Assembly: GCA_951406725.2 (NCBI GenBank)
Contig: OX597837.1
Location: 25,916,001 to 25,980,000 of the forward strand
DNA: 64,000 nucleotides
From: Octopus vulgaris
Taxonomy: Eukaryota
Direction of reading: 5' to 3'
The notes under the pieces were generated by a model, which made no database searches, had not been told where the DNA came from, and saw only the letters and a program-made list of their open reading frames with translations. A program made the position numbers and the translations under genes. Shown here piece after piece: positions 13,621-48,543 of this stretch. Numbering within the stretch: the stretch's first letter is position 1; each line of letters starts with the position of its first letter.

Positions 13621-13879
13621 TCCAGTAGGTTGGTTATTGAGCCTTTGCAACATTCTGCTATTGTTTATGCGATGCATAAGCTGCTCCAAATTAGCAGAGT
13701 TGGCATAGGATACCGCCACAGTGTGTCGGTTAAAAATAGTATGATACCGATTAGATTTCGGAAAACACTTGTCCAAAGCAGCAAAATATTTTCCAGTGAT
13801 CTTGGTTGAAACATGCGAACCGAAAATTGGGTTGAACCAGAGAACATCCTGATTCCTATATCTGTTGTCAGGCTTGTTT

Positions 13880-13884
<5 letters not shown>
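13621..13884 (-). pseudogene. Penelope-like element ORF fragment (region between RT and GIY-YIG)
   Basis: VLWFNPIFGSHVSTKITGKYFAALDKCFPKSNRYHTIFNRHTVAVSY matches the PLE motif WFNPP..V.T.IG..F..L.DK.FP....IFNR.TVK.SY; bounded by (TA)n. Confidence 0.75.
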
Positions 13885-13914
<30 letters not shown>

Positions 13915-13915
<1 letters not shown>

Positions 13916-14408
13916 CGGGTGAATGAATTATCCTATGTTTACTGTCAACATGGAAAATTCGATGAACCGATACCAGGGTAGCAAATTCACGTCAGAAACA
14001 CGGTTGAAGCGACCTATCCAAAGGTAGAAACTCTGGGTTCGTGTGCAGAAATTTGTGTGTTATATATGAATAAATAAATAAATGGAGTAGAACGAAGATG
14101 TTAATAAAATTCCTTTACTTTCGACATATGTTTCGAAGACAACATGGTTTTATTCCAAAGGAATAAACGGTCTAAGATGCAATCTTCTCATCAGGAAAGA
14201 AAGGGAGCCTCTCTCAACAACAAGACAATATAATAATTATGATGACTGCCTACATGATAAACAAAACGTTAATAAGTGATGAGAAGATTGCATCTTACAC
14301 CATTTATTCCTTTGGAATAAAACCATGTTGTCTTCGAAACATATGTCGAAAGCAAAGGAATTTTATTAACATCTTCGTTCAACTCCATTTATTTATTTAT
14401 TCATATAT
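13915..14408 (-). mobile_element. fold-back PLE-type element (133-bp inverted arms, 83-bp spacer, one-sided tail)
   Basis: 14061-14193 is the near-perfect reverse complement of 14277-14408; flanked by (TA)n. Confidence 0.8.
14118..14199 (-). ncRNA. minimal type-I hammerhead ribozyme
   Basis: Minus strand: ctttc CTGATGA gaagat...gtcttc GAAA c-atat-g TC gaaag; full core, stem I ctttc/gaaag, GUC cleavage triplet. Confidence 0.85.
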
Positions 14409-14489
14409 ATATATATACCAGCCACCCTGTTGGAATACAGACAAGTGAATGAACCAGTGGATTTCTTTGCTGCTTTACCTATAACCAGA

Positions 14490-15496: not shown

Positions 15497-15500
<4 letters not shown>

Positions 15501-15686
15501 CGTATATTTGCCATTTTAATATGGCTAACCCCTAAGGGTGGATGCTACTGTAGTTTGTAGCCCCAGGAGAACAAACTAGAAACTACAGTAGCATCCACCC
15601 TTAGGGGTTAGCCATATTTAAATGGCAAATATACGTCACGATGTGTTGTAGCTACTGTTTATAACTCGCTCTAAGATATATTATTG

Positions 15687-15689
<3 letters not shown>
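15497..15689. mobile_element. small fold-back element in (TA)n
   Basis: ~64-bp inverted arms 15497-15560 / 15576-15639 plus 50-bp tail. Confidence 0.7.
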
Positions 15690-15732
<43 letters not shown>

Positions 15733-41040: not shown

Positions 41041-41590
41041 ATATAAAGAAGTAAATACAAAGAATAAGGTAATAAAATGGGCGTGTTTGTGTGTAATCAT
41101 CGTCATCATCATTATGATCATTTTAATGTCCATTTTCCATGCTGGCATGGGTTGGACAGTCAGATAAGAAATGGCAAACCAGAGGGCTATGCTATGTTCT
41201 ATCATCTGCTTTGGCATAGTTTCTATGGTTGGATGCCCTTTCTAATGCCAACCCCTTTACAGAGTGTACTGAGTGCTCTTTTCATAGCAACAGCATTGGC
41301 AGGGTCACCAAGTAACTTGCAAGACAAAGTTCCCTCGATTTAGTGGTGGTCGAATAGAGTAATAGCAAGGAAGGCAGCTTTGCCAGTTGATGAGAGATCA
41401 AATGATAATAATAGAAGGATATCTGTAGAAGAGATACAAGGATATCTGTCTGTCTGTCTATCTGTCTGTCTATCTATCTGTGTATCTGTCTATCTATCTG
41501 TGTGTCTATCTGTCTATCTATCTGTGTATCTATCTATCTATCTGTGTATCTATCTATCTATCTATCTGTCTGTCTGTCTGTCTCTCTCTA

Positions 41591-41640
<50 letters not shown>

Positions 41641-41733
41641 AAATATTATTAGAGACAAAACCACTATTTTGCAAAACAAACAAGGAAAGACTTAATCAAT
41701 ACATAAAATTTTAATAAATAGTCAAAAAAACCG

Positions 41734-41776
41734 CCACTACAATCGTTTCTTGTCTTGATCGACAATCTTCAGGTGG
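41734..41776 (-). ncRNA. minimal type-I hammerhead ribozyme (mirror copy)
   Basis: Minus: ccac CTGAAGA ttgtc-gatcaa-gacaa GAAA c-gatt-g TA gtgg. Confidence 0.8.
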
Positions 41777-41820
41777 ACTTCAATAAGTCAGTTTCAAATT
41801 TGAAACTGACTTATTGAAGT

Positions 41821-41863
41821 CCACCTGAAGATTGTCGATCATGACAAGAAACGATTGTAGTGG
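41821..41863 (+). ncRNA. minimal type-I hammerhead ribozyme
   Basis: ccac CTGAAGA ttgtc-gatcat-gacaa GAAA c-gatt-g TA gtgg; stem I ccac/gtgg, 5-bp stem II, GUA triplet. Confidence 0.8.
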
Positions 41864-42579
41864 CGGTTTTTTTTGACTATTTATTAAAATTTTATGTATT
41901 GATTAAGTCTTTCCTTGTTTGTTTTGCAAAATAGTGGTTTTGTCTCTAATAATATTTTATAATATTTTACTATAAAATTGGATTTAATCCTAAATCTGAT
42001 TTTTTTCCCTGTAAATTTGGATTTATTCCCTAATATTTATTATTATATATATATATATATATATATATACGTATATATATGATGGGCTTTTTAAAGTTTC
42101 CATCCACTCACAAGGCTTTGATTGGCCTGAGGGTATAGTAAAAGACACTTACCCAAGGTGCTACACAGTGGGACTGAACCAAGAACCATGTGGTTGGGAA
42201 ACCAGCTTCTTACAACACAGCTATGCCTGTGCCACAGTCTCTCTTAGTAGTCAGGACACAGTATGACTATTTTATTTCTCACTCCTTTCCACCCTCCTCA
42301 CTTTTCCATTTGTGTATCTTTCAAATTGGATTCGCCCAGAAAGATTCCCATATCATTTCAACGAAGAAATTTCTCACATTTGTGAGGGTTCATACAAACA
42401 CACACACACACACATCTCACACTTAATCACTAATCAACTGACATCTTTCCACAAATATTTATCAATATAAAATAGCACCTTCGTTAGTTTTGCAAACAAG
42501 AATTGATAGATTGGAACTAAAACATTTCTAATTAGAAAATATTTATTTATTCAGAAAATTAAAACGAAAAATAAACAAA

Positions 42580-42747
42580 GCGCAGGAGTGGCTGTGTGGT
42601 AAGTAGCTTGCTAACCAACCGCATGGTTCAGGGTTCAGTCCCACTGTGTGGCACCTTGGGCAAGTGTCTTCTACTATAGCCTCGAGCCGACCAAAGCCTT
42701 GTGAGTGGATTTGGTAGACGGAAACTGAAAGAAGCCTGGCGTATATA

Positions 42748-42801
<54 letters not shown>

Positions 42802-43008
42802 TCTCTGTGTGTGTCCCCCTAGCATTGCTTGACAACCGATGGTGGTGTGTTTATGTCCCCGTTACTTAGCGGTTCGGCAAAAGAGACCGATAGAATAAGT
42901 ACTGGGCGTACAAAGAATAAGTCCCAGGGTCGAGTTGCTCGATTAAAGGCGGTGCTCCAGCATGGCCACCAGTCAAATGACTGAAACAAGTAAAAGAGTA
43001 GAGTAAAG
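42580..43008 (+). mobile_element. SINE family A
   Basis: Full-length copy. Confidence 0.9.
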
Positions 43009-43216
43009 AGACCATAAAGTGAAGCTTTGTTTCATTTTCTCTCTCCTCTACTATTTTCAGGATCGACAACTGTAATGCCTTGTTAGTTCTGATTAATTAT
43101 GATGATTAATCCTTTAGCATTCAGATCACTCTGTCAAATGTAGTACTTATTTATTCACTTATGATGACAAACGATAAGACCAACTGATCTATTTCTGTGT
43201 CTGTACCATAAAGTGA

Positions 43217-43562
43217 CTAGCATGGGTTGGACGGTTCGACCGGGGTCTGGGAAGCCATGGAGGCTGCACCAGGCTCCAGTCTGATTTGGCAGTCTTTCTA
43301 CAGCTGGATGCCCTTCCCAACGCCAACCACTCCGTGAGTGTAGTGGGTGCTTTTTACGTGCCACCGGCACAGGGGCCAGAGCAGCCTGGCAAACGGCCAC
43401 GATCGGTTGGTGCTTTTACGTGTCACCAACACGGACGCCAGTCAGGCGACGCTAGTAACTGCCACGCTCGAACGGTGCTTTTACATGTCACCAGCACGGG
43501 TGTCTTAACTACAATTTCCATTCGAATTTTTGATGTTGACGAACTTGACTCAACAGGTCTCC
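43217..43562 (-). mobile_element. family C repeat (RTE LINE 3' UTR)
   Basis: ctagcatgggttggacggttcgaccggggtctgggaagcc...ctcaacaggtc. Confidence 0.8.
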
Positions 43563-43579
43563 TCGTTTTTAATTAATTA

Positions 43580-44091
43580 CTAGCAGTATCGACTGGCGTT
43601 GCTCGGGTTTGTAAGGGAAATAACTATATAAGCATTTTAAGAGAGTTACTTCCCTTATAGATGCCAATTCGGGCTTTCTTAGCCATTTCTGTTTTGGTGT
43701 CTTCAAGCCATGAAGTCGTTGTTCTAAAAGAACGCTGGTCTCCTTGACAACGTTTACGACGTTGCTTTCCTTACACTCCCTTCCCCACAGCTTCACGAGG
43801 GAGGAAAGAAGGGGGAGAAGCAAACAGGTGCAGGTGTGACCATGGATGCCAACTCCGCCGCCATCGACACACGAAAAATTATGCATTAAAATGGAATAAA
43901 AAATGATGTTAAATTATTTTTAAAATCGTAGACTCATCGTAGACACGCGCTAATAGCCAGACGGGCTTGATATTAATCACGACTATAAGATACCCGAATT
44001 TGGTTAAACTGCACCGCAAAATGTGGGAGGAGTTAGGAATCTAAATCGAAGGGGACAGACACTCACACAACTACAGTTTTATATATATAGA
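43580..44091 (-). mobile_element. non-autonomous Helitron
   Basis: Minus strand A|TCTATATATATAAAA ... cccgagcaacgccagtcgatactgCTAG|T; no TSD; sister copy at 48544-48918. Confidence 0.85.
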
Positions 44092-44237
44092 TGTATCATC
44101 TAGTAGCTTTGAGATTTCAATGATGTGATTGCATATCTAGGATTGGTGTGAGAGTCTAGATCTGGCTGGTTTGAACATAAAACAAGTAGAATATCTTGGC
44201 TGGATATGACCTCTTTTTATTGGTCATGAATGACCAT

Positions 44238-44845
44238 TGGATCGCACCTAGAAAGTTCTTGGAGGCACGAGCCCGGAAAAGGTTGTTTGTGGAAGACCAG
44301 CAGTCGCCCATGCATACCAGTCTCCCCTCTTCATATCATTGAAGTAAAAGGGGTAAAGAACCCCCTTTAGTCAGAAATCAATATGGGATTGCACCTAGAA
44401 AGTTCTTGGAGGCACGAGCCCAGAAAAGGTTGTTTGTGGAAGACCAGCAGTCGCCCATGCATACCAGTCTCCTCTTCATATCATTGAAGTAAAAGGGGTA
44501 AAGAACTCCCTTTAGTCAGAAATCAATATGGGATTGCACCTAGAAAGTTCTTGGAGGCACGAGCCCAGAAAAGGTTGTTTGTGGAAGACCAGCAGTCGCC
44601 CATGCATACCAGTCTCCCCTCTTCATATCATTGAAGTAAAAGGGGTAAAGAACCCCCTTTAGTCAGAAATTAATATGGGATTGCACCTAGAAAGTTCTTG
44701 GAGGCACGAGCCCGGAAAAGGTTGTTTGTGGAAGACCAGCAGTCGCCCATGCATACCAGTCTCCCCTCTTCATATCATTGAAGTAAAAGGGGTAAAGAAC
44801 CCCCTTTAGTCAGAAATCAATATGGGATTGCACCTAGAAAGTTCT
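44238..44845. repeat. 147-bp tandem repeat (4+ units) derived from a SINE tail
   Basis: Units at 44238, 44385, 44530, 44677, 44824. Confidence 0.9.
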
Positions 44846-45148
44846 CCTCCAAGGCACAAATCTGAGCAAGTGTTTTGAGGAAGGCCAGCAGTCACCCATT
44901 CATACCAGCCTCTCCTCTCCATGCCACCATTGTTGTCCAAGGGCAAGGCAAAGGCCAATACAGCTTGGGATTAGTGACATCATAACTCAATTCTATTGCT
45001 GAATGAGCTGGAACAACATGACAAAGTGTCTTGTTCAAGAATACAGCTCACAACCCATCAAGAATACAACTCACAGCCTAGTCTGGGAATCGAACTCACA
45101 ACCTCACGATTGTTAGCCCACTGCTCTAACCACTGAGCCATGCACCTT
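44820..45148 (-). mobile_element. tRNA-derived SINE (further family)
   Basis: Minus head aggtgcatggctcagtggttagagc...gagttcgattccc with A and B boxes. Confidence 0.8.
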
Positions 45149-45354
45149 GATTAATTTGTTTGTTCCTTCTTGAGCCATGCCTGGCTCATAAGGGCCAGTT
45201 TCTCAGTTTCATTAGTATATAGATTCCCCACCTGGACAGGACACCGGTCCTTCACAGGTGAACTGCTAGATGCAGGAGGAAAGAGTGAGAGAAAGTTGTG
45301 GTGAAAGAGTCAGCAGAAGTTTGCCATTATTTTCTGTCAGAACCACATGGAGCT

Positions 45355-45748
45355 CAAACAAGAGAGGACAAACAAGGACAGACAAATGGATTAAGTCGAT
45401 TATATTTGACCCTAGTACGTAACTGGTACTTATTTAATCGACCCTGAAAGGATGAAGGGCAAAATCAACCTCGGTGGAATTTGAACTCAGAACGTAGCGG
45501 CAGACGAAATACCTATTTCTTTATTACCCACAAGGGGCTAAACATAGAGGGGACAAACAAGGACAGACAAAGGTATTAAGTCGATTACATCGACCCCAGT
45601 GCGTAACTGGTACTTAATTAATCGACCCCTGAAAGGATGAAAGGCAAAGTCAACCTCGGCGGAATTTGAACTCAGAACGTAGCGGCAGACAAAATACCAC
45701 TAAGCATTTCGCCCGGCATGCTAATGTTTCAGCCAGCTCGCCGCCTTA
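45355..45748 (-). mobile_element. two tandem SINE family B copies
   Basis: Core gaaaggatgaa(a/g)ggcaaa twice; head ccagctcgccgcctt at the right end. Confidence 0.85.
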
Positions 45749-46204
45749 GTACTAGTACATATTATGTGTACAACGTTAACAGTACAAAGATGATCGTAAA
45801 CAACTTTAACAGACATTGAGATGACAAAGAAAAAAATTGATAACTTAAAAACTTTTGATCTCGAAATAGAAAATTAAAAAAAAATTTTGTAAAAAAAAAT
45901 TTGAAAGATAAGTAAATCTAAGTAAAAAAGTTATTGGTCTTTGAAGACAGACATCAAATGGAGAGAACATTTTTGGCAAAAAAAAAAAAAATTAAATTTA
46001 AAGCTATCTTTGATATTTTCAACAAAGTAGTTTCCAAGGAGAGTTTAAAAAATGTTTAGAGGCTAGTACTGACAAAATTCTTCAAGAATTGGTACAGCAT
46101 GTGTTGAACTATTTAACTCTTGTGCCTGACGCGCAACTGTTGTTGTCCACTTGTTTGATTTTATTCCAGAGGATGTGATCCTCCATCTTCATTCTAAGAG
46201 CGAC

Positions 46205-46710
46205 AGCAGCAGCAGCCGTTCAAGAACTTGGACCCGGAGATCTCCATTTCCAGCGACTTCAAGGGTCACCTCCCAGTGGTGTCGGGTGTCAACGAAGAGC
46301 CCTCGACTACAACAAGACGACTAAAGTTGTTTTTTTTTCCAAGGTCTGGGGTCTCCCGCCCCTAAGCCCTAGACCATCATCTAATCACCCTTACCCGTCT
46401 TGTTGCTTAACAACAACAACAACAACAGCAGCAGCAACAACAACAATAACAGCAACAATAACAACAGTAACAACAATGCGTACAGCAGCAGCAGCTGTTT
46501 AAGAATTTGGACCTGGAGATCTCCATTTCCAGCGACTTCAAGGGCCACCTCCCAGTGGTGTCGGGTGTCAACAAAGAGCCCTCGACTACAACAAGACGAC
46601 TAAAGTTGTTTTTTTTTTCCAAGTTCTGGGGTCTCCCGCCCCTAAGCCCTAGACCATCACCTGATCACCCTTACCTGTCTTGTTGCTTAACAACAACAGC
46701 AGCAGCAGCA
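46205..46710. repeat. ~279-bp tandem duplication of GC-richer unique sequence
   Basis: 46205-46440 repeated at about 46484-46710 with scattered substitutions. Confidence 0.85.
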
Positions 46711-46999
46711 GTGCTGCCACCACTGCCACCACCACCACCACCACCACCACCTTCATCAAACATCCATGCTCGCTTGGCGAAATGGAATTTGTTGAGGTGA
46801 ATTTTCTATGGCTGCATGTCCTACCTGTCACCAACCCTCACCTGTTCACAAGAAATACTTCTCCATTGCCAGACATATTTTTGTGGAAGACTAGAAATGA
46901 AGGATACAGCTAGCATGACAGTAATACTCGTTTACAACAATCACAATTTCAAAGCAAGAAGACAGCAACACACACACACACACACACACACAATCATCA

Positions 47000-47420
47000 T
47001 TGTCATCATCATCATCGTCGTTTAACATCAGCTTTCCATGCTGGCATGGGTTGGGCAATTTGACTGAGGACTGGCGAACCAGATGGCTGCACCGGGCTCC
47101 AATTACCCACTACATTCTTGGAGTGGCTGGCATTAGAAAGGGCATCCAGCTGCAGAAACTCTGCCAGACCAGGCTCCAATCAGATCTGGCAGAGTTTCTG
47201 CAGCTGGATGCCCTTCCTAACGCCAACCACTCCGTGAGTGTAGTGGGTGCTTTTACGTGCCACCCGCATGAGGGCCAGTCAGGCGGTACTGGCAACGGCA
47301 ACACTCAAATGGTGTTTTTTACATACCACCTGCGCAAGAGCCAGTCCAACAGTACTGGCAACGACCTCACTCGAATGCTTTTTCATGTGCCAGTAAGGTG
47401 ATGTTGGTAACGATCACCTT
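47000..47420 (-). mobile_element. family C repeat with short internal inversion
   Basis: gaaagggcatccagctgcagaaactctgccaga (about 47137-47169) inverted against 47185-47219. Confidence 0.7.
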
Positions 47421-47463
47421 ACTAGCACTTGTTGCTGTGGCAGTAAGGTGGTTGTTATCAGCA

Positions 47464-47497
<34 letters not shown>

Positions 47498-47501
<4 letters not shown>

Positions 47502-47825
47502 ATACTAAGTAATTAAGGGTTTGGCCTCACCACACACCGAATTTAGAAATAGCAGTCAAAGAGTTTTGGCTATTCTTTCTACTTAAAAGGGAGATCCCAG
47601 TAAAACCACAGCACTTACTGGGATCTCCCTTTAAGTAGAAAGAATAGCCAAAACTCTTTGACTGCTATTTCTAAATTCGGTGTGTGGTGAGGCAAATCGT
47701 TGCTAAACCCTTAATTACTTAGTATTACTTAAACCTTCCTTGAATGGGGCTTTTACATGCCGAAATCTACTTGGTGAAATTAATGATTATTCCAAATTAA
47801 TTAATTTCACCCTTTATTATTATTG
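47498..47825 (+). mobile_element. fold-back element in (TA)n, ~105-bp arms, 11-nt loop, one-sided tail
   Basis: 47498-47604 mirrors 47615-47729 apart from a small indel. Confidence 0.8.
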
Positions 47826-47961
47826 ATATATATATAATATATATATATATACATATATTATAATAAATTAGAGACAAAACCACTATTATGTAAATCAAAC
47901 AAAGAAAGACTTAAGCCAATACATAAAATAATTTATATAAATTAAAATTTAACAAATGAAT

Positions 47962-48015
47962 AACCACTACGATATCGTTTCGTGTCAGCATATCTTAGAC
48001 ATTCTTCAGGTGGTT
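47962..48015 (-). ncRNA. minimal type-I hammerhead ribozyme (mirror copy)
   Basis: Minus: aaccac CTGAAGA atgtc...gacac GAAA c-gatatc-g TA gtggtt. Confidence 0.75.
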
Positions 48016-48074
48016 TCTAAACTTCTTAGCGAGTTATAAACTTCATAGTTTATAACTCGCTAAGAAGGTTTAGA

Positions 48075-48126
48075 AACCACCTGAAGAATGTCTAAGATGT
48101 GCTGACACGAAACGATCGTAGTGGTT
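48075..48126 (+). ncRNA. minimal type-I hammerhead ribozyme
   Basis: aaccac CTGAAGA atgtc-taagatgtgct-gacac GAAA c-gatc-g TA gtggtt; palindromic stem III; A.C mismatch at base of stem II. Confidence 0.78.
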
Positions 48127-48543
48127 ATTCATTTGTTAAATTTTAATTTATATAAATTATTTTATGTATTGGCTTAAGTCTTTCTTTGTTTGATTTGCAT
48201 AATAGTGGTTTTGTCTCTAATTTAATATAATATAATATTTTACTATAAAATTGGATTCAATTTTAATCTGATTTTTCCTTGTAAATTTGGATTTATTCCC
48301 TAATATTTATATATATATATACACACACATACACACAATGGGCTTCTTTTAGTTTCAATCTCTCAAACCCATTCACAAAGCAGTATTGGCCCAAGGCCAC
48401 GGTAGTAGACATTTACCCAAGATGCCACACAGTGCAACTGAACTCAAAACCATGTGGTTGGGAACGAAACTTCTTACCACACATCCAAGCTTGCACCTTA
48501 TTATTCAAATATATGATTATAATAATTATAATATTATAATCAA

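Follow-up and report, generated by a model that had tools for sequence, protein, structure and literature searches.

A hammerhead-bearing palindrome in a (TA)n tract of Octopus vulgaris, very probably a 5′-truncated insertion of a Penelope-like element

A palindrome carrying two hammerhead motifs occupies positions 47855–48234 of the window, i.e., the whole 64,000-nt stretch of Octopus vulgaris contig OX597837.1 (assembly GCA_951406725.2) analysed here. Self-alignment of this segment to its own reverse complement gave a match of 95.8% over 383 columns, with two arms lying head to head and a type I hammerhead in each. The right arm (48047–48234, plus strand) is read as the 3′ end of the element in sense orientation, reaching a tail-less terminus, and the left arm (47855–48042, minus strand), delimited by self-alignment, as an inverted tail-less copy of the same end (an inverted pseudo-LTR). 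Between them lies an unpaired 4-nt centre (48043–48046), 34 nt upstream of C3, taken as the point of 5′ truncation and inversion. The right arm is followed by a one-sided tail of approximately 75 nt (48235–48307, plus strand) with a G.U-containing hairpin, to which the left arm has no counterpart. (TA)n sequence borders both ends: the left side of the target spans 47826–47860, its junction blurred by TA microhomology, and the right side is a (TA)n/(CA)n tract at 48308–48337, beyond which lies an unrelated SINE-like repeat fragment (48338–48500). A target-site duplication is unreadable within (TA)n.

The right-arm hammerhead (48075–48126, plus strand; C3 at 48081, predicted cut after 48120) consists of stem I (48075–48080/48121–48126), the core (48081–48087 and 48109–48112), stem II (48089–48092/48104–48107) with an A.C mismatch at its base, and a self-complementary helix III segment (48112–48119). 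Its left-arm counterpart (47962–48015, minus strand; C3 at 48009, predicted cleavage after 47968) carries a 2-nt insertion in helix III, which looks like a dinucleotide slip that kept self-complementarity automatically and shows no sign of selection. Helix III is thus self-complementary in both arms, as a sequence-only reading of this DNA had noted, and all core motifs named in that reading are present, as are the invariant core and three-way junction of the type I hammerhead. The canonical G10.1–C11.1 pair, a preferred rather than invariant hammerhead feature, is absent in both arms, its place being taken by the A.C mismatch. The two cores are only about 70 nt apart. Scanning both strands of the window for type I hammerheads with stems I and II paired returned five motifs, compared to a background of 0.06 motifs per window in 50 trimer-block shuffles; four are palindrome arms and the fifth lies at 14194 on the minus strand. 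Rfam gave no match in the window at gathering score, and the 51 sub-threshold matches in 41500–48400 included no hammerhead family, the best being hairpin look-alikes.

The remaining two arms belong to a sister insertion of a different subfamily at 41632–42040 (plus strand), composed of a left arm (41632–41799), a right arm (41800–41961), and a tail (41962–42040), with hammerheads at 41821–41863 on the plus strand and 41776–41734 on the minus strand. Positions 41632–41965 match their own reverse complement at 98.5%. The two copies share 74.4% identity over 449 columns, tail included, which bears out the earlier proposal of related but clearly diverged elements; there is no third copy in the window. 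Their flanks are 73.5% identical to each other, no closer than to other SINE copies, ruling out segmental duplication as the origin of the pair. The palindrome centres also differ, as had been claimed, that of the sister lying 25 nt upstream of C3 vs. 34 nt in the 47855 copy. Differences between arms amount to five events in the 47855 copy (three substitutions and two small indels) and two in the sister (one substitution and one indel). Since none of the three substitutions occurs among the family variants listed from sequencing-run contigs, they look like mutations acquired after insertion. With five and two events between arms vs. approximately 26% divergence between copies, the suggestion that each palindrome formed after the subfamilies split holds up; its companion, later homogenisation of the arms, becomes unneeded if the mirror arm was made at integration.

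An alternative would be a MITE or foldback DNA transposon with a hammerhead lying by chance in long terminal inverted repeats; such an element would likewise be short, non-coding, palindromic, present in high copy number, and flanked by TA. We consider this origin very improbable, as the ends are asymmetric, with a conserved tail on one side only (72 of 76 positions shared with the tail of the sister when counted to 48310), and the centres differ between copies. Furthermore, the two arms of one copy are nearly the same, whereas arms of different copies differ by 26%, and the ribozyme type is linked to open reading frames (ORFs) of Penelope-like elements (PLEs), as described below.

Comparison of the two copies showed where the element had been constrained. 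The invariant core positions were identical at 12 of 12, whereas their neighbours were identical at 49 of 88 (upstream 12/28, loop II 3/11, downstream spacer 34/49; Fisher p = 0.0017 vs. the core), so that the core proved more conserved than adjoining bases in the very comparison that had been put forward as able to refute the sequence-only reading. Core plus inner stems agreed at 34 of 35 positions; the differences within the motif lay in loop II, in the two outermost base pairs of stem I (0/4 positions identical), and in the basal pair of stem II (0/2), and no compensatory change was found between the two window copies. The view that loop II had changed was therefore correct, while the view that the stems diverge was not. 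The 3′ terminus (52/59) and tail (72/76) together reached 124 of 135, and the core was no better conserved than these (p = 0.38). From these identity counts, it is the loops rather than the stems that appear to diverge, and constraint extends to a second part of the element, the terminus with the tail. In contigs of four sequencing runs, variants within 48075–48126 were listed in loop II only, and a variant seen as a loose end in two runs differed in loop II and, within the core, at the free position 7 alone. Selection on the core in the parent lineages, as previously suggested, is supported by both this sparing of the core and its 12/12 identity.

Predicted folding indicated how such a ribozyme could behave in different contexts. 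In a monomer, helix III formed with a predicted probability of only 0.01–0.02, whereas for two sense copies the best predicted fold was the classical active dimer (−25.8 kcal/mol vs. −8.1 kcal/mol per monomer). Because the arms lie head to head, each transcript would contain a single ribozyme in each orientation, sense and antisense, and no such dimer can form in cis. The whole element was predicted to fold into a hairpin of −292.9 kcal/mol with a probability of 0.00 for all ribozyme stems; a ribozyme inside the palindrome would thus be fully sequestered and silenced. The tail hairpin folded better on the plus strand in both copies (z of −1.39 and −2.51, compared to −0.18 and −0.80), which weakly suggests that the plus strand is the RNA strand.

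These predictions also bear on the twin-ribozyme unit implied by the sequence-only reading, which did not survive: a transcript has one hammerhead in sense and one in antisense, and the ribozyme stems are predicted to be absent from read-through RNA. A selected device of this kind, in which gene conversion keeps the arms alike and both ribozymes act, e.g., on divergent transcripts starting from the centre, could draw on the intact cores in both arms, on the sense dimer as the predicted minimum-energy fold, and on the bidirectional promoters suggested for pseudo-LTRs by Arkhipova et al. (2013; PMC3846280). Nevertheless, it is the least probable of the explanations considered, and barely credible: the intact cores are explained by the youth of the insertions, any read-through RNA is predicted to sequester the ribozyme, the space between the cores is short, and two other palindrome-plus-tail inserts in the window lack any hammerhead.

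A metagenome scan for the same hammerhead type yielded 22 loci. One of these, L019, is a complete element in which two 395-bp direct repeats, 97% alike and each with a ribozyme, flank an ORF of 701 amino acids; the element ends in (TA)n. The ORF has at least 3193 homologs and contains conserved motifs that we take to be reverse transcriptase (RT)-like and GIY-YIG-like, with a C-x-C-x5-C-x5-C linker before the GIY-YIG-like domain. Among its neighbours in the protein atlas, some members carry GIY-YIG and RVT_1, and in a fold search with the protein model (pLDDT 89.7) the seven best PDB matches were telomerase RTs. Pfam found no family on the L019 ORF or on the related window fragment, and a single weak, unrelated family in one of 47 L019 homologs, while a PDB sequence search with the protein gave no match. 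A profile of the L019 protein matched two of the 22 loci, namely L019 itself and L004, both with the ORF in sense and upstream of the ribozyme; in L004 the endonuclease end was recognised (E = 3.7e−47), with its stop codon 70 nt before the ribozyme. The remaining loci were mixed. L002, L003, L005, L015, L021, and L022 were rejected: they appear to be fortuitous matches within coding DNA, and the self-complementarity of helix III is weak or absent. L009, L013, L014, and L020 are other hammerhead-like motifs with a palindromic helix III on four metagenome contigs, where no PLE ORF was matched. In two members of the L004 family, inverted pairs were observed (L012 73–257 and L018 67–143), one tail-to-tail and the other head-to-head. 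The hammerhead pattern was not found in viral contigs, nor the tail motif in the viral and prokaryote collections (no match in either).

In a nine-row hammerhead alignment, composed of five motifs from four of the 22 loci and the four window arms, 92.6% of cells paired and five of 12 pairs had changed on both sides; as the rows share ancestry, counts from shuffles cannot be read as probabilities. All two-sided changes fell in stem II and outer stem I, positions that the search pattern left free, whereas the core and inner stem I of L019 and L004 match the window copies by construction of that pattern. At the foot of stem II a single base stands on either side: A.C in the 47855 copy, U-A in the sister, C.A in L019, and U.U in the L004 family. 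Because neither window copy showed nucleotide similarity to L019 or L004 outside the ribozyme, the link of the window element to PLEs is one of ribozyme type and architecture, and not of a traced parent. No autonomous parent of the window family was encountered, which counts against the PLE reading.

This architecture has close counterparts in the literature. For PLEs, an inverted 5′-truncated copy, a one-sided tail of 30–40 bp, and a (TA)n bias tied to a cysteine linker have been reported, the linker before GIY-YIG being described for Neptune and Nematis (Craig et al., 2021; PMC8557442). Pseudo-LTRs arranged head to head with palindromes at the junction are on record as well, with self-priming proposed (PMC3846280). 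In an Anolis PLE, two RT start sites delimit the tail, the ribozyme needs the protein, and insertion in vitro does not require cleavage (Frangieh et al., 2024; PMC11167929). Like the EN+ PLE insertions of these three papers, the window copy shows an inverted 5′-truncated head-to-head copy, a junction palindrome, a one-sided tail, a microsatellite target, and a hammerhead in the terminal repeat. It differs from them in that no ORF is left and in its tail of about 75 nt, approximately twice the published 30–40 bp, a discrepancy that counts against the PLE reading. PLE hammerheads have a palindromic helix III, depend on dimers, and show low activity, and in Schistosoma they occur in pairs on opposite strands, 100–700 bp apart (Cervera and de la Peña, 2014; PMC4209133). 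The window hammerheads resemble them in being type I with a short palindromic helix III and a dimer-dependent fold (predicted here), and in occurring, as in that account, as dispersed copies tied to truncated PLEs. They differ from the PLE hammerheads described there in their 6-bp stem I and in having, at the base of stem II, one base on each side in place of a single 5′ bulge. Neither the long tail nor this unpaired base of stem II is more than a modest variation. Non-LTR retrozymes are likewise short, non-coding, low-GC, and PLE-related with a type I hammerhead; however, they are direct tandem repeats that yield circles (Cervera and de la Peña, 2020; PMC7229834; bioRxiv 10.64898/2026.07.22.740005), whereas in the window copy the two repeats are inverted and each strand carries a single sense ribozyme. 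In a squid genome, 235 hammerheads were counted (PMC6962438). No description of the window repeat family was found in the published literature searched; it may already be catalogued in Repbase or Dfam.

Contigs from sequencing runs, of which X4 and X10 may be RNA, extended the picture to the family. The right arm, whole or partial, was present in 21 of the 24 listed runs (four organism labels, 11 studies). Among contigs aligned to 48036–48322, loose ends exited into (TA)n at 48234 in all four runs (20, 5, 1, and 4 contigs), while others continued through the tail, giving two family-wide termini that are both joined to (TA)n. In both window copies, CTAAT followed by an AT-rich run closes each of the two termini (48215–48234 and 48297–48310), and similar end motifs are what two equivalent RT start sites might show. 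Although summed contig depth is not copy number and palindromes disturb graph assemblies, depth at 48206–48215 exceeded that at the tail end 1.7–1.9-fold in run X1 and 2.3–2.5-fold in run X16, suggestive of a segment present twice, and a tail present once, per insertion. In the two runs covering the centre, depth fell 7- and 10-fold relative to the core at 48046–48055 and 40- and 60-fold at 48036–48045, a gradient toward the core that is partly due to divergence between subfamilies (loose ends of the sister type occur at 48174). The fall is suggestive in exceeding the twofold expected from a fixed palindrome. Among the joints listed from the run contigs, none folded back near the centre. From the termini and the central fall in depth, the mirror arm was most likely built anew at each insertion. 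Taken as a whole, this is an abundant repeat family with many subfamilies that share a terminus and tail.

The abundance of subfamilies with a common terminus and tail would also be expected of a dedicated PLE parasite, short and non-autonomous (a mini-PLE, or retrozyme-like monomer), whose RNA of approximately 265 nt would start just upstream of the hammerhead, be itself the unit under selection, and be mobilised in trans, with the mirror arm still made at insertion. Both window copies end 25–34 nt upstream of C3, and in the L004 family, where 5′ junctions cluster within about 12 nt of stem I, the other ten loci lose likeness 2–12 nt upstream of stem I, save one same-site pair. L004 itself, however, shows that such clustering also arises in a family with an ORF directly upstream. 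Furthermore, one 400-nt contig of run X4 matches 48067–48216 exactly and then extends a further 250 nt past 48067 (letters unseen), as a longer parent would. We therefore regard a dedicated parasite as unlikely.

With high confidence, we interpret the 47855 element as a 5′-truncated PLE insertion, in which a sense pseudo-LTR and tail are joined to a tail-less mirror copy made during integration in (TA)n. The parent would be an endonuclease-bearing PLE, and the (TA)n target together with the shared type of hammerhead makes it probably Neptune-like. Its RNA would have carried a type I hammerhead near the 3′ end, predicted to adopt the active fold only as a dimer through the self-complementary helix III. 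The RT-GIY-YIG protein would nick a (TA)n tract, and reverse transcription of uncleaved RNA would begin at 48310 and 48234, about 75 nt apart; the two termini are observed, and their meaning as start sites is taken from the Anolis PLE work. Synthesis would halt 25–35 nt upstream of the core. The end of the cDNA may then fold back on a short palindrome, or anneal to a second cDNA, to give the head-to-head copy without a tail. Since insertion, the copy would have been inert, gathering few mutations. In read-through RNA from either side, the antisense arm would come first, followed by a predicted hairpin of approximately 185 bp that blocks the ribozyme. On this reading, the ribozyme was selected in the mobile parent and is predicted to be silenced in the 47855 copy, and the element is debris of a kind already known from genomes rather than a device of two ribozymes.

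Other inserts in the window were observed alongside the two copies. A third hammerhead insertion in (TA)n (13915–14409, minus strand) has the same build and an unrelated sequence, with a canonical G-C stem II foot, an inverted arm broken inside the core, a spacer of about 57 nt, and a tail of about 145 nt. Adjoining it at 13630–13880 (minus strand), between two (TA)n tracts, lies a PLE RT-endonuclease linker fragment; positions 13866–13675 are a fragment of the L019 protein family (E = 4e−12), the sole strong match in the window. Both finds speak for the PLE reading of the 47855 copy. Directly upstream of the 47855 copy and in the same (TA)n, 47498–47825 comprises a palindrome (47498–47729) and a one-sided tail of about 95 nt, in which no hammerhead was found; this insert possibly represents a ribozyme-free PLE clade such as Naiad. 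A palindrome with a one-sided tail of about 50 nt in (TA)n, again with no hammerhead found, lies at 15497–15690, and a 144-bp hairpin within another repeat family is present outside (TA)n at 47105–47248.

In a wider reading, the family would be a lineage of mini-PLEs, non-autonomous and very abundant, whose hammerhead forms a subtype of its own and whose RT start sites lie unusually far apart; every insertion would leave a perfect hairpin of about 185 bp that silences its own ribozyme. Hyper-editing in octopus has been linked to abundant near-perfect dsRNA, and a lizard Penelope is heavily edited (PMC5625713); such inserts could be a main source of the exceptional self-folding dsRNA in octopus. 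We offer this as speculation with a small but real chance of being right.

The significance of the 5′-truncated PLE insertion lies mainly in annotation: an abundant repeat missed by Rfam gets a name, and a false twin-ribozyme lead is removed. Beyond this, the two sharp termini about 75 nt apart provide material for testing the two-start-site model of the PLE tail, and the distribution of centres provides material for testing fold-back against the joining of two cDNAs. That 5′ ends cluster immediately upstream of the hammerhead raises the question of whether the ribozyme fold or the start of the transcript stops the RT.
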